Counted from the stretch's first letter, positions 10,040 through 58,015 are shown. The stretch: 64,000 nucleotides of DNA from Flavobacteriales bacterium (GCA_020435415.1 JAGQZQ010000002.1:26301-90300), one strand, 5' to 3'. Numbers and translations are program-made. Notes: generated by a model from the sequence alone, not told the origin.

Positions 10040-10993
10040 ATGTCTACATCTCCTCTAGTGATCAATGGCACGGAAGTGCTTCCCGGCGAACGTAAAATCA
10101 TCAACCTGAATATTGCCAGTCTGCCCAGCCGCACACCCATTGACATTCCAATACACATCTTCCGGAGTAAAAAAGAGGGACCAACGATGTTGCTTCTGGC
10201 TGGCATGCACGGAGATGAGGCCGGTGGAATTGAGATCATACGTCGCATCATCAGTGACGCCCGAATGAAGCGCCTTCTTAAAGGAACGGTGATGGCCATC
10301 CCAATTCTTAACATGTATGGATTCCTGAACTACTCCAGGGAGGTTCCGGACGGAAAAGATGTAAACCGCAGCTTTCCCGGTAACAGGGCAGGATCTTTGG
10401 CCAGCAGGGTTACATGGCATTTTGCCCACGAGATCATGCAATTTGCAGACTACATTATAGATTTTCATACCGGAGGTGCAAGTCGGAGCAACTACCCTCA
10501 GGTTCGATGTGTGTTGGACAGGGGTCCCATTGAAGAAATGGCGGTGGCCATGGGTGCGCCCTTTGTGATCAATGCCAACCTTAGGGACCGGTCACTGCGC
10601 TGGTATGCCACAAAAAAGGGGATTCCTGCCCTGGTATACGAAGCAGGTGAATCGCTGAGGTTTGACGAACATGCCATCTCGGAAGGAGTAGATAGCGCCT
10701 TTCGGTTTATGAAGCACCTGAAAATGATCTCAAAGGCCCCACAATCAAACAATGTAACCATCCTTCGAAGAAGCGGTTGGATCAGGGCCAAATCGGCAGG
10801 CTTGTTCAGACCGTTTGTGGAAAGTGGTGAGAAAGTACGTAAAGGTACCATTATAGGTACCATCTCAGGCCCGTTTGGCGACTACAACAAGAATGTTCGC
10901 GCGAAAGAAAGCGGTTACATTATCGCGGTAAACCATATGCCAGTGATCAATCAGGGCGATGCACTGTTTCACATGGGATATGTTTCTGTCTAG
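10040..10993 (+). CDS. Succinylglutamate desuccinylase/aspartoacylase family zinc hydrolase
   Basis: GMHGDEAGGIE and DFHTGG motifs fit the AstE_AspA zinc-binding pattern. It lies 13 bp downstream of the DUF785 gene. Confidence 0.7.
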   Translation: MSTSPLVINGTEVLPGERKIINLNIASLPSRTPIDIPIHIFRSKKEGPTMLLLAGMHGDEAGGIEIIRRIISDARMKRLLKGTVMAIPILNMYGFLNYSREVPDGKDVNRSFPGNRAGSLASRVTWHFAHEIMQFADYIIDFHTGGASRSNYPQVRCVLDRGPIEEMAVAMGAPFVINANLRDRSLRWYATKKGIPALVYEAGESLRFDEHAISEGVDSAFRFMKHLKMISKAPQSNNVTILRRSGWIRAKSAGLFRPFVESGEKVRKGTIIGTISGPFGDYNKNVRAKESGYIIAVNHMPVINQGDALFHMGYVSV

Positions 10994-10994
10994 A

Positions 10995-11172
10995 AGTTAG
11001 TAGATAGTACTTAGTAGTTAGTAGTTAGTGCATTGACTACGCGAAAGGAGGTTTGCCTTCTGTTATGCCTGGGATCTGGACGCTGAGACTTTGGATGTTA
11101 GAAGATACCACATTGGATCATGGAATCCGCATTGACCCTCAACTAACTACTAAGTACTATCTACTAACTACT
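10995..11172. repeat. Perfect ~32-bp inverted repeat (agttagtagatagtacttagtagttagtag / ctactaactactaagtactatctactaact) flanking a ~110-bp core, built from the TAGTAGA heptamer family
   Basis: Direct reverse-complement comparison. It lies between convergent genes 10040..10993(+) and 11178..12017(-), and may double as a bidirectional terminator. Confidence 0.7.
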
Positions 11173-11177
11173 TTATA

Positions 11178-12017
11178 CTATTTCGACATATGCACCTGCA
11201 CCTGCGGGAATGGGATTTCAATGCCCTGTTCGTTGAATGCCTTATAAACTTTGTCGTTCATATCAAAATAGACAGCCCAGTAATCAGGCGATTTCACCCA
11301 GGCTCTTACCACAATGTTTACGGAACTATCGGCCAGTGCGGAGACTGCGGTAAACAATTCAGGGTCTTTGAAGATACGTTCATCCTGTGAAGCAAGATTT
11401 GCGATGATCTCCCTGGCTTTATCTGTGCTTGTTCCATAACCGACACCAAAAGTCCAATCCACCCTCCTCTTGTCTTCCGTGGAATAATTGATCATCGAAT
11501 TAGTGGCTAATTGTCCGTTGGGTATGATGATCGTTTTAAAATCAGGTGTATTCAAAATGGTATTGAAAATCTGAATCTCCTTTACGGTACCGGTATACCC
11601 GGATGCTTCGATCACGTCACCTACTTTATACGGTTTGAAGATGAGGATCATCACACCACCGGCCAGGTTTTGAAGTGTTCCGGACATCGCCATACCGATG
11701 GCAATACCTGCCGCACCAAGGAACGCAATAAAAGAGGTCATTTCCACCCCGAGCGTACCCAGCACACTCAGCACAAGCATGATCTTCAGGAGGGTATTGA
11801 TCAGGCTTTTCATGAACGGTTTCAATGACGGATCCAGGTGGCGCTTTTCCATCACCGTATTCAATCCACGGACCACACCCCGGATCACCCAAAGCCCAAT
11901 AACCCATACGGCAATCGCCACTAAAAGACGACCACCAACTGTGTACCCCCAGGTACGTGCCAACTCAATCAATTGATTGGGATCTGTAGATAGTCCCACG
12001 GATTCTAATTCATTCAT
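11178..12017 (-). CDS. Mechanosensitive ion channel (MscS family)
   Basis: 279 aa with N-terminal TM helices and a conserved MscS beta-domain region (PYKVGDVIEASGYTGTVKEI). Confidence 0.8.
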   Translation of the reverse strand: MNELESVGLSTDPNQLIELARTWGYTVGGRLLVAIAVWVIGLWVIRGVVRGLNTVMEKRHLDPSLKPFMKSLINTLLKIMLVLSVLGTLGVEMTSFIAFLGAAGIAIGMAMSGTLQNLAGGVMILIFKPYKVGDVIEASGYTGTVKEIQIFNTILNTPDFKTIIIPNGQLATNSMINYSTEDKRRVDWTFGVGYGTSTDKAREIIANLASQDERIFKDPELFTAVSALADSSVNIVVRAWVKSPDYWAVYFDMNDKVYKAFNEQGIEIPFPQVQVHMSK

Positions 12018-27803: not shown

Positions 27804-27887
<84 letters not shown>

Positions 27888-42774: not shown

Positions 42775-42980
42775 GCTAGGTGTGAGGTGGTGATTTGGTG
42801 ATGTGATGACCTGCCAGCCGAAGCGCCAGCCATTGTGATAGCAGGCTGGCCTGCCAGCCGAAGCATTAGCCATTGCGCAGGCAGGCTGGTTGGGAAATTG
42901 CTACACTTCGGGTAACGACAAGCATACGGTACGGCAACTTTAAACCTTAAACCTTAAACTTTAAACCAGAAACTAACTTT
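42775..42980. repeat. Composite intergenic repeat element, copy B: GGTGATTT octamers, two CCTGCCAGCCGAAGC REP-like hairpins, a ~40-bp core (cttcgggtaacgacaagcatacggtacggcaac) and TTTAAACC repeats
   Basis: About 88% identical to the reverse complement of 57812..58015 over ~200 bp (aligned by hand). Confidence 0.85.
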
Positions 42981-43572
42981 CCAACGACCGCCACAAATAC
43001 CAGCAACCGATGGTCCGGTAAGGTTTCCATGGGCTAGATATGCGGTTCATCGTGCGTTCGGAGGGGCCGGATTTAAAGCCGTATTGTTCCCGTATCGCCC
43101 GTTGAATGCCCACATCACCTACCGGAAGGATATCCATCCGGTTAAGGGAGAACATCAGGAACATATCTGCGGTCCAGCTTCCGATCCCTTTCAATTCAAT
43201 CAGGTTCTTTTTAACCGTCTCGTCATCCATGTTTTTCATGGCATGGAAATCCACCATCCCTTCATGCACACGTTTTGACAAGTCCAGCACCCAGCTGGCT
43301 TTGGCATTGGATAATCCGGCGGCCCGTAATTGATCCGGGGAGTATCTTAATATGTTTTGCGGATTCATATCGTGATTAATGACATCCATCATCCGTTTCC
43401 AGATGGTATCAGCAGCTTTGGTAGACAATTGCTGGGAAACGATGGCCCCAAGCAAGGAGTGGTAGGGTTCTTTAGGCTTAAGGGTATATGGTCCATGGTC
43501 ACGGATCAATTGCTTCATCACCGGATCAGCAGTAGATAAATGGTTAAGGATTTCTTCTTTCTTCATGGACAT
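42973..43572 (-). CDS. alkA: DNA-3-methyladenine glycosylase II (HhH-GPD family)
   Basis: 199 aa with a helix-hairpin-helix GPD region (LIELKGIGSWTADMFLMF...D) containing the catalytic Asp. Confidence 0.75.
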   Translation of the reverse strand: MSMKKEEILNHLSTADPVMKQLIRDHGPYTLKPKEPYHSLLGAIVSQQLSTKAADTIWKRMMDVINHDMNPQNILRYSPDQLRAAGLSNAKASWVLDLSKRVHEGMVDFHAMKNMDDETVKKNLIELKGIGSWTADMFLMFSLNRMDILPVGDVGIQRAIREQYGFKSGPSERTMNRISSPWKPYRTIGCWYLWRSLES

Positions 43573-43720
43573 TGAAATTTGATAAGGCCTTACGCGCAGC
43601 CGCCAAATTAGACAAACTCCTGTTTTTTATTTACCCCCGCACGAAAATGCGATAACTTTTCCCAACGGTATAATCCATCTGCCATAACTTGTGATCGGGG
43701 TGGGGCCTGCAGCGTCCCTC

Positions 43721-43760
43721 ACTAACTACTATCTACTATCTACTAACTACTATCTACTAA
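43721..43760. repeat. Tandem heptamer array CTACTAT/CTACTAA x5
   Basis: Read directly, in the divergent region between alkA(-) and osmC(+). Confidence 0.9.
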
Positions 43761-43794: not shown

Positions 43795-44232
43795 ATGTCT
43801 ATCAGAAAAGCCAATGCCGTATGGAACGGCACACTCAAAGAAGGAAAAGGCACCATGGCCTTTACCGGATATAACGGTCCGTTTACTTTTGCTTCCCGTT
43901 TTGAGGAAGGCTCCGAAACCAATCCGGAAGAACTGGTGGGTGCTGCCCATGCAGGATGTTTCTCCATGTTTCTTTCCGCTTTGCTCTCTGGCGAAGGACT
44001 GAACCCTGAAAGCATTGAGACCGTTGCCAGTGTGACGCTGGAAAGAGATGATACCGGTCCGGTCATCAACCGCATTGTTCTGAACAGCAAAGTAAAATGC
44101 GAAGGACTTTCAAAGGAAAAGTTTGATGAACTGACCGCCAAAGCAAAAGCCAACTGCCCCATCTCACGTTTGTATGCCGGAAGCACGGCAGAGATTGTGC
44201 TGGAAGCAAGTTTGCAGACAGTTCTTGCGTGA
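43795..44232 (+). CDS. osmC: OsmC/Ohr family peroxiredoxin-like protein
   Basis: 145 aa with two conserved Cys (GCFSM, ANCPIS) in the OsmC pattern. Confidence 0.8.
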   Translation: MSIRKANAVWNGTLKEGKGTMAFTGYNGPFTFASRFEEGSETNPEELVGAAHAGCFSMFLSALLSGEGLNPESIETVASVTLERDDTGPVINRIVLNSKVKCEGLSKEKFDELTAKAKANCPISRLYAGSTAEIVLEASLQTVLA

Positions 44233-45884
44233 ACGGGCAGTTCACGCCAAAGTTTTTCACTTTACTAAAACAAGGCATTTCCAGAAAGCAACTGGGTATC
44301 GACGTCATGTCCGGTATCGTTGTAGGCATCGTAGCGTTGCCTCTGGCTATTGCTTTTGCCATAGCTTCGGGAGTATCACCTGAAAAAGGATTGATAACAG
44401 CGATAGTTGCCGGCCTGACTATTTCCATCTTTGGAGGCAGCAAGGTCCAGATCGGTGGTCCTACCGGAGCTTTTATAGTGATCGTATTCGGCATTGTACA
44501 GCAACACGGTGTAGGTGGCCTTATAATAGCAACGTTCCTGGCCGGTTTTCTCTTAATCGCTCTGGGGTTGGTTCGTGCAGGTAAGTACCTTCGTTTTATC
44601 CCACATCCACTGATCATTGGTTTTACCAGTGGCATAGCGGTTGTGATATTTTCTTCGCAAATCAATGAACTGTTGGGGTTAGGGATTGACCATATTCCCG
44701 CTGGATTTGTGGAAAAATGGAGATCATACACCTCGCATATAAACAGCCTCAACATCTATGCTTTGGGGATTGCTGCCGGCACTATTATTATTACCGCGAG
44801 CTTTCACAGATTGTCTCGAATGGTTCCGGGGTCTATCATCGCTATTCTCCTCTCCACAATTGCCGTTTACGTTTTCCACCTGCCTGTTGACACCATTGAA
44901 AGTCGTTTCGGTGAAATCCCGGGCAGTCTGAGTTTGCCGGTGATTCCCGAAGTAGACTTCAACACCATGGGTTCGTTAATCAGGCCCGCTATTACCATTG
45001 CATTATTAGGAGCGATCGAATCACTTTTATCGGCCGTGGTAGCAGACGGGATGATCGGGGGAAGGCACCGACCCAACATAGAGCTGGTGGCACAAGGTGG
45101 TGCCAATATCATATCGGCGATGTTTGGAGGTATCCCTGCGACAGGAGCCATTGCACGTACAGCCACCAACATAAGGAATGGAGGAAGAACCCCCGTTGCC
45201 GGGATTGTACACGCGCTTACCCTTCTGATCATCATGATAGCATTGGCTCCATACGCCAAACTCATACCACTAAGTTGTCTTGCGGGAATACTTTCAGTGG
45301 TTGCTTATAACATGAGTGAATGGCGTCAGTTCGTATCAATACTAAGGAGCCGCAACCTTGAGATACTGATCCTTCTGACTACATTTCTACTTACAATTAT
45401 TTTTGACCTTGTACTGGCTATTGAAATCGGGTTGCTGTTATCCTGTTTTCTTTTCATGAAAAGAATGAGTGATACCTTTTTGGTTCAGGGCGCAATTGTC
45501 AATCATAAAAGAGAGGATGAACTTTTCCAGCAAGAACTGAATTACCCTGCTGATAAGGTCACGTTATATGAGATTAACGGACCACTATTCTTTGGCGCTG
45601 CTCAGCAATTTGCCGATACATTGACCGACTTACGTGTCAAGCCCGGCATCATTATTCTGAGGATGCGTTATGTGCCGTTTATTGATGCAACGGGCTACCA
45701 CAGACTTAAAGAAGTTATTCGTTCTTTTGAAAAGCAAGAAACATGTGTGTTAATTTCCGGCGTAAGTGAGGAACTCATGAAAGATTTTGAAGTCAACAAC
45801 CTATTCACTTATGTCAAACAAGAAAGAGTATTTAAGGAAATTGAAGGTGCATTGAACTACGTACGGTCCGAACTAATTTGCTGA
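44229..45884 (+). CDS. SulP family anion transporter with C-terminal STAS domain
   Basis: 551 aa, multi-TM core plus STAS region. It has a 4-nt overlap with osmC. Confidence 0.85.
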   Translation: MNGQFTPKFFTLLKQGISRKQLGIDVMSGIVVGIVALPLAIAFAIASGVSPEKGLITAIVAGLTISIFGGSKVQIGGPTGAFIVIVFGIVQQHGVGGLIIATFLAGFLLIALGLVRAGKYLRFIPHPLIIGFTSGIAVVIFSSQINELLGLGIDHIPAGFVEKWRSYTSHINSLNIYALGIAAGTIIITASFHRLSRMVPGSIIAILLSTIAVYVFHLPVDTIESRFGEIPGSLSLPVIPEVDFNTMGSLIRPAITIALLGAIESLLSAVVADGMIGGRHRPNIELVAQGGANIISAMFGGIPATGAIARTATNIRNGGRTPVAGIVHALTLLIIMIALAPYAKLIPLSCLAGILSVVAYNMSEWRQFVSILRSRNLEILILLTTFLLTIIFDLVLAIEIGLLLSCFLFMKRMSDTFLVQGAIVNHKREDELFQQELNYPADKVTLYEINGPLFFGAAQQFADTLTDLRVKPGIIILRMRYVPFIDATGYHRLKEVIRSFEKQETCVLISGVSEELMKDFEVNNLFTYVKQERVFKEIEGALNYVRSELIC

Positions 45885-46434: not shown

Positions 46435-46923
46435 ATGGGAAAAATAAGCACTGAGATAAAATGGGCTTTGATTTTTGTTGTGACTTCCCTCACCTGGGTC
46501 ACAGCGGAAAAACTTGCCGGTATGCATGATGAACATATCGATGTACATATGCTCACCACTTCTTTGTTTGCCATACCGGCACTCCTTATTTATGTGCTCG
46601 CTCTTCTTGAAAAAAGAAAGAAGTCGTTCGGTGGATTCATGACCTACAAGCAGGGTTTTTTGAGTGGCATGATCATCACCCTGATCATTACCGCCCTCAG
46701 CCCGGTTAGTCAAGTGATCAAATCCCTCGTGATCACACCGGATTATTTTGCAAACATGATTCAATATACTGTGGACCACGGACTGCTGCTTCCGGAAGAT
46801 GCCGCTGCAGAATTCAATCTGACCAGATATATCAAAGGAAGCATATTCGGCGCATTTTTTATGGGTACCATTACAGCCGCAATCCTGGCGTTTTTCACCA
46901 AAAAACTACCCAACGGGCAATGA
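46435..46923 (+). CDS. DUF4199-like small membrane protein
   Basis: 162 aa with four TM helices. Confidence 0.45.
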   Translation: MGKISTEIKWALIFVVTSLTWVTAEKLAGMHDEHIDVHMLTTSLFAIPALLIYVLALLEKRKKSFGGFMTYKQGFLSGMIITLIITALSPVSQVIKSLVITPDYFANMIQYTVDHGLLLPEDAAAEFNLTRYIKGSIFGAFFMGTITAAILAFFTKKLPNGQ

Positions 46924-47408
46924 ACGACTATTCAGATATTCTGACCGATATCCGTAAGATCGTTCGCTCGGTGAACCTGGAGTCTAAAAGGATTCAAAAG
47001 GATTTCGGAATCAGCATTCCCCAACTTCTTTGCCTATCACATCTGAGTCAATGTGAAGAATTCCAATCGACCCATAAAGACCTTACACGAATTCTTCACC
47101 TCAATTCCAGCACCGTTACCGGTATTGTAAACAGACTGGAAAAGAAAGGCCTGATCGCCCGGTTACCAAAAAAGGACGACAAGCGCGTTACCAATATCGC
47201 ACTCACATCCGCCGGGTACGAAATGCTTGAAAAGACCCCTGATCTGCTGCATCAAAAACTGCTGGCCAGGATTACCGCATTGCCTGAAGAGCAGGTTCAC
47301 TCCATTAAAGCTGCCCTTCAACTGATCATCACCGCCCTTGGCGTTGAGAACCTGGACGCCTCCCCGATGCTCACCATCGAAGACAACATCACACGGGACG
47401 CTACCTAA
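46920..47408 (+). CDS. MarR family transcriptional regulator
   Basis: Winged-HTH region PQLLCLSHLSQCEE...TRILHLNSSTVTGIVNRLEKKGLIAR. Confidence 0.8.
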   Translation: MNDYSDILTDIRKIVRSVNLESKRIQKDFGISIPQLLCLSHLSQCEEFQSTHKDLTRILHLNSSTVTGIVNRLEKKGLIARLPKKDDKRVTNIALTSAGYEMLEKTPDLLHQKLLARITALPEEQVHSIKAALQLIITALGVENLDASPMLTIEDNITRDAT

Positions 47409-47642
47409 ACACATCACCCCACCTTTCCCCTTGAACCTGTCACAATAGGCTTTATCTTTCTTTTTTGTATATTTGTTGTATCGAACATATTTTTAGATTT
47501 AATATGTCTATTTTACCCTTTTAAGTTTTAATTTATTCCTAAAATAACGTAATCATCAATTTTTTTAATAGCAATATCCTTTATAAACGTTATTTTGTTT
47601 CTACACAACCTTTCAGGTCACTAACTGCAAACCCCGACCGTT

Positions 47643-49169
47643 TTGCCTGAACATAAAAGCAAACGGTCCTCTTACCACGCCATACACCACCATGTGTTCT
47701 GGCCATCCCTGGCGGTGATCATTCTGTTTATCGTGGTTACACTGCTGAATCACAAACGTACCGGCGCCTTTTTCTCCGACATACAAACCATGATCTCGGT
47801 GAATACAGGCTGGCTAATGATCCTGGTTGTAAATATCCTTCTGATATTCTGCCTCTACCTGGCATTTGGGAAGTATGCCAATATCCGGCTCGGAGGACCA
47901 CGCGCTAAACCGGAATTCTCTACATCTGCCTGGTTTGCCATGCTGTTCAGCGCCGGAATGGGTATCGGACTTTTATTCTGGAGCGTCGCAGAGCCGATCT
48001 CCCACTATGCCAATCCCCCTACCGGAACCGGAATGACACCAGCTGCCGCACAAACAGCGATGAATGTGACTTTTCTGCACTGGGGACTCCACGCATGGGG
48101 AATTTACGCACTGGTTGGACTGGCATTGGCGTACTTCACCTTTAATAGGAAGCTCCCTCTCACGATCAGTTCACTGTTTCATCCGATCCTCGGAAAACAC
48201 GTAAACGGCCCGATCGGACACATCATTGATACCCTTGCCGTCATCGCTACGCTGTTCGGATTAGCAACCTCACTCGGTTTAGGTGCCAGACAGATCAATG
48301 CCGGTTTGCATTTCCTTCTCGAAACAGAAATCAGTACCAACGTGCAGATTTTCATCATCGCCGGGACAACCCTGGTAGCTACCGCTTCCGTTGTACTAGG
48401 ACTAAAAAACGGGGTGCGGCGACTGAGCGAACTGAACATGTACCTGGCCGCCGCATTTCTCGCAGCCATGCTGTTGTTCGGTCCCACATTATTTATCATC
48501 GACTCCTTTGTTCAGAACACGGGGAGTTACATTCAACAGCTACCCCGCCTGAGCTTTTGGGCAGAAGCCTACAAACAAACCAGCTGGCAGAATGACTGGA
48601 CCATATTCTACTGGGGGTGGTGGATCGCATGGTCACCATTCGTAGGAATGTTCATCGCCCGTATATCCAAAGGACGTACCATCCGGCAATTTGTTCTTGG
48701 GGTATTGCTGGTGCCCACCCTGCTTACATTCATATGGCTGTCAACATTCGGCGGGGCCGCCCTTCATTTGCAGATCACCGGTATGGCAGACATTGTGGGC
48801 GCTGTAAACGATAATGTGGCTACAGCCCTGTTCAAACTGCTCGCCCATTACCCCTACGCCTTTATTTCCTCCACCATCGGACTTGTGCTCATTTGCAGCT
48901 TTTTTGTCACATCCTCGGACTCGGGCTCACTGGTCATCGACAGCATCACCTCGGGTGGCCGGCTGGATGCACCTGTCGGACAAAGGATCTTCTGGGCTCT
49001 CACCGAGGGCGTCGTTGCAGCCATTCTTCTGATCGGAGGCGGATTACAGGCATTACAAACCGCTTCAATTACGACCGGACTTCCTTTTGCCGTGGTGTTG
49101 CTGGTCGTTTGCTACTGCCTTTACAAAGAATTAAATAAACACGAATCACCAAAAAAACAACAACCATGA
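47643..49169 (+). CDS. BCCT family (betaine/carnitine/choline) transporter
   Basis: 508 aa, 12 TM, with conserved BCCT segments (GWWIAWSPFVGMFIARIS, WTIFYWGWW). Confidence 0.9.
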   Translation: MPEHKSKRSSYHAIHHHVFWPSLAVIILFIVVTLLNHKRTGAFFSDIQTMISVNTGWLMILVVNILLIFCLYLAFGKYANIRLGGPRAKPEFSTSAWFAMLFSAGMGIGLLFWSVAEPISHYANPPTGTGMTPAAAQTAMNVTFLHWGLHAWGIYALVGLALAYFTFNRKLPLTISSLFHPILGKHVNGPIGHIIDTLAVIATLFGLATSLGLGARQINAGLHFLLETEISTNVQIFIIAGTTLVATASVVLGLKNGVRRLSELNMYLAAAFLAAMLLFGPTLFIIDSFVQNTGSYIQQLPRLSFWAEAYKQTSWQNDWTIFYWGWWIAWSPFVGMFIARISKGRTIRQFVLGVLLVPTLLTFIWLSTFGGAALHLQITGMADIVGAVNDNVATALFKLLAHYPYAFISSTIGLVLICSFFVTSSDSGSLVIDSITSGGRLDAPVGQRIFWALTEGVVAAILLIGGGLQALQTASITTGLPFAVVLLVVCYCLYKELNKHESPKKQQP

Positions 49170-49993
49170 TGACGAAGGATTTGATGAAAGAGAAAAAGAA
49201 CCAGGATTTTGGAAATAATCCAACTGAAGTCAGGGAAACAGATCACTACAAAGACGAATACGTTCACAAGTTCGTAGAAAAGTGGGACGAACTTATCGAC
49301 TGGAAAGCCCGCGGCGAAGGCGAGGGTAAATTCTTTATTGATGAGTTAAAGAAGCGGGGTAAGCATAAGATCCTGGATGTGGCTACCGGCACCGGTTATC
49401 ATTCCGTGAAACTACTGGATGAAGGCTTTGAAGTGTGGAGTGCAGACGGAAGTCCGGTCATGCTCTCAAAAGCCTTTGAAAATGCCAGAAAACACGGTCA
49501 CCTTATGCATACCATTTATGCAGACTGGCGTTGGCTTAACAAGGATGTGCATGGTAAATTCGATGCCATCATCTGCCTTGGCAATTCTTTTACACACCTG
49601 TTCTCGGAAAACGACCGCCGCAAGGCACTGGCTGAGTTTTATTCCGCACTGAAACACGATGGGATACTCATCATCGATCACCGTAATTATGATGCCATAC
49701 TGGATAATACGGAATTCACCAACAAGCATACATTCTATTATGCCGGAGATAAGGTCAAGGCTGAACCTGAGCATGTGGATGAAGGCCTGGCCCGTTTCAG
49801 GTACGAGTTCCCCGACAAGTCGGAGTTTCATCTCAACATGTTTCCACTTCGGGAAAAATATGTGCAAAACCTGTTAAAGCAGGTGGGTTTTCAAAACATC
49901 TCCACGTACGGAGACTTTCAGGAAACATACCGTTCCGAAACACCGGACTTCTTCATACACATTGCCGAAAAATCATACAGAGAAAACGAATAG
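49166..49993 (+). CDS. Glycine/sarcosine N-methyltransferase (GSMT)
   Basis: SAM motif ILDVATGTGYHSVKLLDEGFEVWSADGSPVMLSKAFEN closely parallels characterised halophile GSMTs. It overlaps the BCCT stop (ATGA). Confidence 0.8.
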   Translation: MMTKDLMKEKKNQDFGNNPTEVRETDHYKDEYVHKFVEKWDELIDWKARGEGEGKFFIDELKKRGKHKILDVATGTGYHSVKLLDEGFEVWSADGSPVMLSKAFENARKHGHLMHTIYADWRWLNKDVHGKFDAIICLGNSFTHLFSENDRRKALAEFYSALKHDGILIIDHRNYDAILDNTEFTNKHTFYYAGDKVKAEPEHVDEGLARFRYEFPDKSEFHLNMFPLREKYVQNLLKQVGFQNISTYGDFQETYRSETPDFFIHIAEKSYRENE

Positions 49994-49996
49994 ATC

Positions 49997-50836
49997 ATGA
50001 GCACAAACGAACTGATCCATACGACCAAAGCTTATTACGACAGCAACGATGCCGATGAGTTTTACCACCGCGTGTGGGGTGGCGAAGATATTCATGTAGG
50101 CATCTACGAACTGCCGGACGAACGCATCTTTCAGGCAAGTCAACGAACCGTTCAGCAGATGATCTCCATGCTACGGTATATTGACGAGAACACAGATGTT
50201 CTTGACATCGGCTCTGGATACGGAGGTGCTGCACGCTACCTTTCCTCCAGATTCAAATGCACTGTTACCTGTCTGAATCTTAGCGAAAAGGAAAATGAAC
50301 GAAACCGCAAAAAGAACAAGGAAGTAGGCCTGGGTGCCTTTATCGACGTACATCAGGGAAATTTTGAGTATATTCCCTTTCCGGATAACTCATTCAACGT
50401 GGTTTGGTCGGAAGACGCCATTCTGCATAGCGACAACAAAGCCAAAGTTTTTCATGAGGTATCCCGTGTACTTAAGACCGGTGGGCAGTTTATCTTTACC
50501 GATCCGATGCAAAGTGATGATTGCCCTGCAGATGTACTCAAGCCGGTGCTTGACCGTATTCACCTGAAAGAACTGGGGTCTGTGAAACTATACCGAGCCC
50601 TTGCATCAGCCAATGGATTGGAAGAAGTACGTATCATGGAAATGCCGGAACAACTGGTGAACCATTATTCCTCGGTAAAAAGAGAGCTCCAGGGAAAAAA
50701 GGAAGAACTGAAAGATTATGTGAGTGATGACTATATCACCCGGATGCTTGCTGGCCTGGACCATTGGATAGATGGAGGGAAAAAAGGCTACCTGAACTGG
50801 GGAATCCTTCAGTTTAAAAAATCGGGTAAAGCGTGA
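49997..50836 (+). CDS. Sarcosine/dimethylglycine N-methyltransferase (SDMT)
   Basis: N-terminal YYDSNDADEFYHRVWGGEDIHVGIY and VLDIGSGYGGAARYL are hallmark SDMT segments. It starts 3 nt after GSMT. Confidence 0.8.
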   Translation: MSTNELIHTTKAYYDSNDADEFYHRVWGGEDIHVGIYELPDERIFQASQRTVQQMISMLRYIDENTDVLDIGSGYGGAARYLSSRFKCTVTCLNLSEKENERNRKKNKEVGLGAFIDVHQGNFEYIPFPDNSFNVVWSEDAILHSDNKAKVFHEVSRVLKTGGQFIFTDPMQSDDCPADVLKPVLDRIHLKELGSVKLYRALASANGLEEVRIMEMPEQLVNHYSSVKRELQGKKEELKDYVSDDYITRMLAGLDHWIDGGKKGYLNWGILQFKKSGKA

Positions 50837-51083
50837 TGATGTCCGATTAAGAACAAGCCGTGACCCCAGCTTTCCTGTACGACTATCTATATTTAAACAA
50901 GCCTCTGTTCTTGTGATATTTATCAACATAAATATCAGATTTCCATACCTTAATGTAGATGGGTATATCGCAGACACCCCTTCCAAATGCTTTCGTAGTT
51001 TGCTATAAGAAAGCGTATTCGTAATTTTCCACCGGAGGTAGAGTCGTTAGGCACATTGTCTATCGCCGCGAAACAATTCGAGT

Positions 51084-57395: not shown

Positions 57396-57808
57396 AACCG
57401 CAACTAAAATCAGGAAGTCTATTGGTCATGCTCGCGCTGACGGTCTCCTTCTTTTCATGCAAAAAAGAAAAAGATGCGCATGTGCCGCCGGATGTGGTAT
57501 TCAAAACAAGTGCAGGCTACACGTCCGCCGATGCCACGGTAGGCCAGGGAGACACGCTGCTGGTAGGCATTGTGGCCACTAAAACAGAAGACGATCTGAA
57601 AAGCTTTAATGTCTCTTATGCCTACGACGGCGCCTCAAGCACCACCACATTTCACAACTACTTTATGACCTCATCGGAGTATGAAGGCTATTCCGCCGAC
57701 ACCGAGATCATCACGCGCAACCAGGTCGGCACAGAGAAGTGGGTTTTCTCCATCGTGGACCGGGATGGAAATATCACACAAAAGACGTTGATCCTGACGG
57801 TGCAGTAG
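57392..57808 (+). CDS. Lipoprotein translationally coupled to the TonB-dependent receptor
   Basis: ATGA stop/start overlap and lipobox SFFSC. Confidence 0.45.
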   Translation: MKPQLKSGSLLVMLALTVSFFSCKKEKDAHVPPDVVFKTSAGYTSADATVGQGDTLLVGIVATKTEDDLKSFNVSYAYDGASSTTTFHNYFMTSSEYEGYSADTEIITRNQVGTEKWVFSIVDRDGNITQKTLILTVQ

Positions 57809-57811
57809 GGA

Positions 57812-58015
57812 GGGTAGTTTCTGGTTTCTGGTTTAAGGTTTAAAGTTGCCGTACCGCATGCTTGTCGTTACCCGAAGAGTACTGCAATCACCAAACCAGC
57901 CTGCCTGCGCTATAGCTAATGCTTCGGCTGGCAGGCCAGCCTGCCCTGCAATGGCCTAAGCGGCGGCTGGCAGGTCATCAAATCATCACATCACCAAATC
58001 ACTCAATCACCAAAT
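57812..58015. repeat. Composite intergenic repeat element, copy C (inverted relative to copy B)
   Basis: The reverse complement aligns with 42775..42980 with the same order of modules (TTTAAACC repeats, core, REP hairpins, octamers). Confidence 0.85.

Follow-up and report, generated by a model that had tools for sequence, protein, structure and literature searches.

What is a carrier gene of the BCCT family doing directly in front of two methyltransferase genes in a member of the Flavobacteriales, and what controls this cluster? The three genes are found in a stretch of 64,000 nucleotides (nt) from a marine-type metagenome-assembled genome (MAG) labelled Flavobacteriales bacterium (GCA_020435415.1, JAGQZQ010000002.1:26301-90300). 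We refer to the whole stretch as the window and count positions from its first letter. The cluster codes for a BCCT carrier, a glycine/sarcosine N-methyltransferase (GSMT), plus a sarcosine/dimethylglycine N-methyltransferase (SDMT)-type enzyme, and it is preceded by a regulator of the MarR family. An earlier note, made from the sequence alone, had suggested that the three genes are an osmotically regulated unit of betaine synthesis and uptake, and had regarded their setting as consistent with horizontal transfer. In our opinion this is probably a compatible-solute operon, in which GSMT and the SDMT-type enzyme would make glycine betaine, the BCCT carrier would take it up and the MarR protein would act as repressor. 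It is a known pathway in an uncommon gene order, located downstream of a regulator related to EctR and CosR.

The sequence of the first methyltransferase points to a genuine GSMT-type enzyme of the glycine-methylation route to betaine. It scores 474.2 bits with the NCBIfam equivalog model NF051855 (cut-off 350), covering the model at full length (1-259), and over an alignment of 263 residues it shares 66% identity (E = 9e-121) with the crystallised GSMT of Methanohalophilus portucalensis (MpGSMT, 5gwx). In the archaeal enzyme, the residues involved in the binding of S-adenosylmethionine (SAM), glycine and sarcosine and in the methyl-transfer channel are Tyr26, Trp34, Arg43, Leu132, Asn134, His138, Arg167, Tyr185, Tyr206 and Met218 (PMC5146677). 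All ten are kept in the window protein (Y32, W40, R49, L138, N140, H144, R173, Y192, Y213 and M225).

The second methyltransferase has as its best NCBIfam match, by far and over the full model length, the SDMT model NF041675, with a score of 359.8 bits that is below the cut-off of 550. As a control we have scored the orthologues adjacent to GSMT from Salibacter, Saccharopolyspora and a contig of similar organisation (L085, see below). They also reached 345-381, and therefore the cut-off marks a narrower clade and not function. The best match among solved structures was the SDMT of Galdieria sulphuraria (2o57; 45% identity, residues 9-278, E = 3.6e-75). We have also surveyed GSMT in one genome per GTDB species, which gave at least 557 confirmed relatives, and the neighbourhood of the best 80 was examined; a homologue of the second enzyme directly follows GSMT in 77 of these 80 genomes. 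We would classify it as an enzyme of either the SDMT type (sarcosine and dimethylglycine) or the DMT type (dimethylglycine only). The earlier note had credited both proteins with the hallmark segments of the characterised enzymes and had named the second an SDMT; as GSMT- and SDMT-type enzymes of the betaine route both are supported.

The three open reading frames (ORFs), all on the plus strand, are tightly packed (Table 1). The stop codon TGA of the BCCT gene (49167-49169) shares the letters ATGA with the ATG of GSMT (49166-49168), and 3 nt separate the GSMT stop from the ATG of the SDMT-type gene (49997). The ATGA overlap suggests translational coupling of BCCT and GSMT, and the three genes are presumably co-transcribed. 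The ORFs, the overlap, the gap and the 234-nt leader agree in their coordinates with the earlier description, as does the packing of both methyltransferases with the carrier into one apparent operon behind an AT-rich leader. The core of this leader (47451-47600) has 19% GC, against 30% for the leader as a whole and 47.7% for the window.

Table 1. Positions of the genes and of the candidate regulatory features of the betaine locus within the window.
Feature	Position	Strand	Remarks
MarR-family regulator assigned to the EctR/CosR lineage, candidate repressor	46920-47408	+	162 aa, Pfam MarR
AT-rich leader / regulatory region	47409-47642	+	234 nt, 30% GC
Candidate -7 box TATATTTG	47468-47475	+	matches TAnnTTTG
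Candidate operator GTTGTATCGAAC, pseudo-palindrome	47475-47486		abuts the -7 box
Weaker operator-like site GTTGTGTAGAAA	47598-47609	-	34 nt upstream of BCCT start, 2 mismatches
BCCT-family carrier, Na+-coupled type	47643-49169	+	508 aa, short C-terminal tail; candidate betaine (re)uptake
Glycine/sarcosine N-methyltransferase (GSMT)	49166-49993	+	275 aa
Sarcosine/dimethylglycine N-methyltransferase-type enzyme (SDMT or DMT)	49997-50836	+	279 aa
Short GC hairpin, weak candidate for the transcript end	50855-50872		19 nt past the SDMT stop

Two of the start codons deserve comment. For the BCCT gene we have chosen a TTG because of an in-frame stop 21 nt upstream; this TTG is the sole ATG, GTG or TTG before the conserved N-terminal residues. 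These residues and the TTG with which the BCCT gene of L085 likewise begins back the choice. GSMT could alternatively start at ATG 49169 or at ATG 49184, the latter turning the overlap into a 14-nt gap; in the public record the identical protein is annotated from 49166 (275 aa). At the other end of the unit, the terminator-like match listed in the table was called on the minus strand, and the plus strand reads the same palindrome without a T-run. Other candidate elements were discarded. A riboswitch or leader RNA was dropped since Rfam gave no family in the window at the gathering score and none in the leader at E<=1. L085 does not conserve a hairpin that in the window would hide the TTG start (47636-47668, -11.9 kcal/mol), and a 10-nt perfect inverted repeat, AAAATAACGT/ACGTTATTTT (47541-47550 / 47587-47596), has no counterpart in the related loci.

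The carrier is a clear member of the BCCT family (Pfam PF02028, 651 bits, E = 1e-195; TIGR00842, 532 bits, cut-off 408) and has the family signatures, i.e., the GMGIG motif (GxGxG) in transmembrane segment 3 (TM3) and the tryptophan segment WTIFYWGWWIAWSPFVG in TM8. Its substrate is a more delicate matter. With betaine_BCCT (NF047988), the NCBIfam equivalog model, it scores 609.8 bits, under the cut-off of 650, and so do the BCCTs linked to GSMT (551-624) and TmaT (561), a carrier specific for trimethylamine (TMA). Given the score of TmaT, the model does not separate betaine from TMA carriers. TmaT of Myroides profundi (8zw8) is in fact the closest solved structure (566 bits, 53% identity, gapless over 487 residues), followed at about 407 bits by BetT, which carries choline, and at 305 bits by BetP. 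Its aromatic-box residues are all conserved in the window carrier (W147, W152, Y155, W326, W327 and W330), and its Met105 and Na+-type Gly108 correspond to M106 and G109.

The possibility has thus to be considered that the biosynthetic pair is as described and that the BCCT imports something other than betaine: TMA in the manner of TmaT, choline, or the precursors sarcosine and dimethylglycine, from which betaine could be made with less expense of SAM. The proximity to a TMA-specific carrier from another flavobacterium (566 bits, compared with 305 for BetP), the complete conservation of the TMA-box residues and the score under the betaine_BCCT cut-off all point in this direction. TmaT is a Na+/TMA symporter to which neither betaine nor choline, carnitine or trimethylamine N-oxide binds, but the aromatic-box residues are common to quaternary-amine BCCTs in general (PMC11708041). 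The recurrence of BCCTs beside GSMT-SDMT in several phyla also fits a substrate related to the product of the pathway. TmaT reportedly works together with a TMA monooxygenase encoded beside it, and no gene for such an enzyme is adjacent to the window carrier. We consider import of another substrate unlikely, and the genomic context makes betaine the most plausible candidate. In any case, with TmaT as the nearest homologue and scoring 561 on the model, betaine_BCCT labels are unreliable for the BCCTs of Bacteroidota, and betaine should not be assigned to them from sequence only.

How unusual is such a unit? The glycine-methylation route had been presented as rare and mostly known from halophilic cyanobacteria, gammaproteobacteria and actinomycetes, and this part of the earlier note has to be abandoned: close homologues of GSMT turned up in at least 557 species genomes, which represent ten or more phyla and include a coherent clade of Bacteroidota. 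The best 80 of these relatives, 66-77% identical to the window GSMT, come from Bacteroidota, Verrucomicrobiota, Spirochaetota, Actinomycetota, Cyanobacteria, Alpha- and Gammaproteobacteria, Myxococcota, Acidobacteriota and Chloroflexota, and a protein database search gave 3,966 clusters at E<=1e-20. A tree of 317 GSMT sequences has been published (PMC10742547), and an earlier report on Mesonia algae, a flavobacterium, describes GSMT along with an OpuD-type carrier (PMC6905171). The pathway thus belongs to a minority of bacteria but has a broad phylogenetic distribution, and its presence in Bacteroidota is not new.

The gene order is another matter. In 11 of the best 80 GSMT loci a BCCT gene comes after GSMT-SDMT, with all three on one strand, and in none of the 80 does it precede GSMT. 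The 80 closest relatives of the window BCCT in JGI metagenomes (50-62% identity) gave a similar picture, with about ten linked to the pair as GSMT-SDMT-BCCT and none in the BCCT-first order. Overall, the BCCT is linked in some 12-15% of loci, nearly always as GSMT-SDMT-BCCT. The order BCCT-GSMT-SDMT was repeated in one other contig only, L085, where the genes overlap by 8 nt and 4 nt. Its BCCT, GSMT and SDMT are 65, 77 and 67% identical to those of the window, and its enzymes cluster with Saprospiraceae. Linkage to a BCCT is a recurrent theme and the BCCT-first order a rare arrangement. No related GSMT locus shared the flanking genes of the window (OsmC, SulP, DUF1801, DUF4199 and a BT2802-like gene).

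Two other arrangements of GSMT appeared in these searches. Thiomargarita sp. (L057, 5103-6783) has a tandem pair of GSMTs, 67% and 71% identical to the window GSMT, followed by SDMT. The 137-kb plasmid of Roseinatronobacter sp. S2 (NZ_CP121116.1; L177, 5956-7644), the sole GSMT match among 72,556 plasmid records, has a single methyltransferase of 563 aa with an N-terminal part 63% identical to the window GSMT. The length of this protein suggests a fused GSMT-SDMT; its gene adjoins metF, and metK lies about 5 kb downstream.

The question of control leads to the MarR gene, which the earlier note had passed over along with its candidate operator. The gene ends at 47408, abutting the leader, 234 nt upstream of BCCT-GSMT-SDMT. 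A tblastn search of the 72,556 plasmid and replicon records with this protein gave 32 matches at E<=1e-8, and all eight that we have inspected were located beside ectABC(-ask), proVWX, bcct or ablA-ablB. Four of them, from Alloyangia, Qingshengfaniella, Leisingera and Sphingobium, have ectABC(-ask) as their divergent neighbour, one is beside ectABC and proVWX in Vibrio nigripulchritudo, and two are divergent from bcct in Vibrio replicons, which is the published arrangement of CosR. The eighth (51% identity) is upstream of ablA-SSF-ablB in Fulvitalea axinellae, a species of Bacteroidota. EctR1 and CosR have been shown experimentally to repress osmolyte genes at low salinity (bioRxiv 10.1101/845297; PMC13342039).

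Along the same lines, in Kofleriaceae, Myxococcales and Thiohalocapsa, and likewise in an Opitutales MAG and a metagenome contig, GSMT has directly upstream of it a MarR gene whose product aligns at full length with the window protein, and a MarR of this type is immediately 5' of GSMT in five to six loci of other phyla. The MarRs linked to ect, to the bcct of Vibrio and to GSMT have two signatures in common, an N-terminal IL..(I/L)R(R/K)I.R and a C-terminal (L/I)(D/E)(A/V)(A/S)P(V/L/M)L, both missing from an unrelated MarR. Among the GSMT-linked proteins, that of the Opitutales MAG (L032) is an exception. By its gene context, and by the signatures shared with comparison MarRs that were themselves identified by context, we would assign the window protein to the EctR/CosR lineage. 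A regulator of the GbsR type (PMC6207618) was also considered and set aside, as the similarity searches and gene contexts place the protein with the EctR/CosR types.

If this MarR is the repressor, a binding site would be expected in the leader. Bacteroidota promoters follow a different consensus than sigma-70, and a sigma-70 scan of the leader, which found nothing, is for this reason uninformative. The sequence TAnnTTTG, which we take to be the Bacteroidota sigma-A -7 element, occurs just once on the plus strand of 47351-47700 (there are 17 occurrences per strand in the window). A palindrome-like GTT(G/C)TATAGAAC was common to the intergenic regions 3' of the MarR genes of three other Bacteroidota loci (L167, L168 and L171), from which we have derived the operator motif GTTSTATAGAAC. 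Allowing one mismatch, this motif has a single match in the window, the candidate operator of Table 1, with expected numbers of 0.31 per window and about 0.001 per 234 nt; allowing two mismatches there are seven sites in the 64 kb, two of them inside the leader. In three homologue loci fetched afterwards as a test, the motif was present in the expected intergenic region in two and was not found in the third (L179). One of the positives (L178) has TAAATTTGTTGTGTAGAAC, a -7 box fused to the motif and nearly identical to the TATATTTGTTGTATCGAAC of the window, and the other (L180) has two GTCGCATAGAAC-type sites. The operator of EctR1 is said to overlap the core promoter. The recurrence and position of the motif support a model in which the MarR would block the promoter by occupying the candidate operator.

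A MarR unrelated to the betaine unit would be the other explanation. It would serve its own DUF1801-DUF4199-MarR operon or sense oxidants or aromatic compounds, and the betaine genes would be controlled by, for example, the DNA topology of the leader or by feedback at the enzyme level only. The start of the MarR gene overlaps the stop of the preceding DUF4199 gene, an OsmC gene is nearby, the NCBIfam matches of the MarR are weak and to generic models of its family only, such as OhrR and FabT, and the signal of CosR itself is unknown (bioRxiv 10.1101/845297), all of which would fit such a role. It is harder to reconcile with the lineage-specific signature and the selective retrieval of genes in EctR/CosR contexts, with a conserved motif that is seen in the leader only, and with the homologue loci, which keep a downstream transporter/biosynthesis unit, and not DUF4199, as their neighbour. 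An unrelated MarR appears improbable to us.

Some of these homologue loci are of interest on their own. In three Bacteroidota loci (L166, 5001-10483; L178, 5001-10480; L180, 5001-10474) a MarR with 59-72% identity is ahead of a conserved uncharacterised unit that combines an SSF transporter with a GNAT acetyltransferase, an M20 peptidase and either one or two alanine-racemase-like genes. The intergenic region again contains the operator-like motif, and the unit may be an unknown pathway for a solute or amino-acid derivative. In Chitinophaga japonensis (L167, 5001-10483) and a Cyclobacteriaceae genome (L168, 5001-10489) the MarR homologue is followed by small hypotheticals, an SSF transporter, an OTCase-like carbamoyltransferase and an AsnB-like amidotransferase, with GTTGTATAGAA(A)C upstream; that the product is a solute of carbamoyl or amide type is pure speculation. 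Finally, the plasmid pFA9 of F. axinellae (NZ_AP025323.1; L171, 5998-10828) has a cluster of N-acetyl-beta-lysine type (KamA-family aminomutase, SSF symporter and ablB) behind the MarR with 51% identity and two tandem GTTCTATAGAA(C/T) palindromes.

How would the unit work? The AT-rich leader would provide a promoter of Bacteroidota type from which transcription starts. Under low osmolarity, the MarR would sit on the pseudo-palindrome by the -7 box, and on the weaker site near the start codon, blocking the promoter. At high osmolarity repression would be lifted and one transcript would give the carrier and both methyltransferases. GSMT would convert glycine to sarcosine and dimethylglycine, and the SDMT/DMT-type enzyme would finish the conversion to glycine betaine, three SAM being spent per betaine. 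The BCCT would import external betaine, or recapture leaked betaine, with Na+, so that cheap uptake could replace costly synthesis. The archaeal GSMT is subject to feedback inhibition by betaine (PMC5146677), and accumulated or imported betaine might be expected to inhibit the window enzyme likewise. We can also speculate that the stoichiometry of the proteins is set by the weakness of the TTG start and by the overlaps at the gene junctions.

Several observations weigh against this picture. For the enzymes and the carrier, they are the score of the second methyltransferase below the SDMT cut-off, a betaine model that does not separate betaine from TMA carriers, and a nearest characterised relative of the BCCT, TmaT, that binds TMA and not betaine (PMC11708041). 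For the regulation, the window MarR is only 23-29% identical to the proteobacterial EctR/CosR proteins, and its overlap with DUF4199 means that it may belong to the upstream unit. The homologue locus L179 has no motif and no obvious osmolyte neighbour, L085 has no motif in the 164 nt available upstream, and the -7 box is a candidate based on a consensus from the literature. Even so, an osmotically regulated synthesis and uptake unit, as the earlier note had predicted from operon content and leader, is still the best reading of the locus; the gene assignments are sound and the grouping into an operon is well supported, and the osmotic control is proposed.

The origin of the module is a separate question, for the earlier note had placed it inside a block bracketed by inverted repeats and had called this consistent with horizontal acquisition. 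The repeat is real (arms at 42782-42985 and 57805-58002, about 180 nt, 86% identity). The 14.8 kb between the arms contain an HhH-GPD glycosylase, OsmC, a SulP permease, DUF1801, DUF4199, the MarR, BCCT-GSMT-SDMT, a BT2802-like protein, a TonB-dependent receptor and hypothetical proteins. If this repeat delimited a mobile island of recent acquisition, flanking genes that are not syntenic with those of the closest GSMT loci would fit, and transfers of GSMT between phyla are known (PMC10742547). However, we detected no transposase, integrase or tRNA-type marker within the block, and its composition is that of its surroundings. The tetranucleotide distance from the window mean has z values of -0.6 to +0.5 across 44-53 kb, and compared with 39 ORFs of the window the codon-usage distance of BCCT, GSMT and SDMT has z values of -0.4, -1.0 and +0.1, with GC at third codon positions within 1.4 standard deviations. 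Each arm occupies a gap where two genes converge and is built of short tandem motifs and hairpins, and there is a partial third copy at about 1474-1532 (similar pieces extend over about 1474-1810).

In neighbour-joining trees of GSMT and SDMT, which elsewhere largely track phyla, the window sequences are inside a clade made up only of Bacteroidota genomes and unlabelled metagenome contigs, apart from one MAG labelled Roseobacteraceae that is probably mis-binned. Thus, neither base composition and codon usage, typical of the window for all three genes, nor the phylogeny of the two enzymes bears out an acquisition; the repeat stands and the inference drawn from it does not. We found no support for a recent horizontal acquisition of the betaine module, and a mobile island seems to us very unlikely.

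Intergenic repeats are dispersed elsewhere in the window as well (10987-11181, 27804-27878 and 43720-43759). Together, the ~180-nt inverted pair, arrays of GGTGATTT type, CTGCCAGCCGAAGC hairpins and arrays of the heptamer CTACTAT look like a family of this genome resembling repetitive extragenic palindromes (REP) or miniature inverted-repeat transposable elements (MITE). Within the bracketed block, 3 kb upstream of the betaine unit and on the same strand, an OsmC-family peroxiredoxin gene overlaps the start of the SulP/STAS permease (43795-45884), and in other loci we have found no link of OsmC or SulP to a betaine unit.

In the sea, glycine betaine serves as a major osmolyte and is traded as a currency of nitrogen and methyl groups. 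Models of betaine cycling depend on which heterotrophs synthesise it de novo and which only import it, and the locus adds a lineage of Flavobacteriales to the likely producers, within a pathway clade that Bacteroidota have of their own. The more useful lead is the regulatory one. To our knowledge, little has been established about the transcriptional control of the glycine-methylation route or about the signal sensed by EctR and CosR, and here regulator, candidate operator and operon form a compact system whose 12-bp candidate site is defined and can be tested directly. A wider proposal, which we offer as a tentative and rather doubtful one, is that EctR/CosR-type MarRs are regulators of osmolyte modules across phyla, and that in Bacteroidota they act through a GT(T/C)(G/C)TATAGAAC operator fused to the -7 box and control interchangeable cassettes. 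If true, these cassettes would be BCCT-GSMT-SDMT in the window, ablA-SSF-ablB in Fulvitalea and the uncharacterised SSF-containing units. Those pairing SSF with acetyltransferase, M20 peptidase and racemase, or with OTCase- and AsnB-like enzymes, may then make unknown compatible solutes. EctR/CosR control would also extend to the glycine-methylation route, with the lineage upstream of GSMT-SDMT in Myxococcota, Chromatiales and Verrucomicrobiota.

Compared with known systems, the pathway is the one of Halorhodospira halochloris, Actinopolyspora halophila, Aphanothece halophytica and M. portucalensis, with two class I SAM methyltransferases, GSMT and then SDMT. The window differs from these characterised systems in its host, a Flavobacteriales MAG, and in a BCCT gene that precedes and overlaps GSMT. 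It also differs from H. halophila and the Roseinatronobacter plasmid, where metK, ahcY or metF are linked to the pathway and in the window they are not. The GSMT-SDMT-BCCT clusters of Verrucomicrobiota, Myxococcota, Alphaproteobacteria, Cyanobacteria and Thiomargarita (L014, L024, L030, L031, L033, L035, L037, L038, L064, L069 and L079) have the same three families on one strand. In them the transporter is last, whereas in the window it is first, and their BCCTs are only 41-57% identical to that of the window. An EctR/CosR-type MarR is also upstream in some loci of this kind, co-directional in L150 and divergent in L069. The carrier itself shares with TmaT the aromatic boxes, the GMGIG motif and the Na+-type glycine, and differs from it by Glu263 in the place of Asn262 and by being embedded in a betaine-synthesis operon, whereas TmaT does not bind betaine. 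Lastly, the MarR resembles EctR1 of Methylotuvimicrobium alcaliphilum and CosR of Vibrio in its sub-lineage, its C-terminal tail and its seat beside osmolyte genes. Unlike them, it is co-directional and not divergent, its presumed targets are genes of glycine methylation instead of ect, bet or bcct, and its candidate operator is a sequence specific to Bacteroidota.

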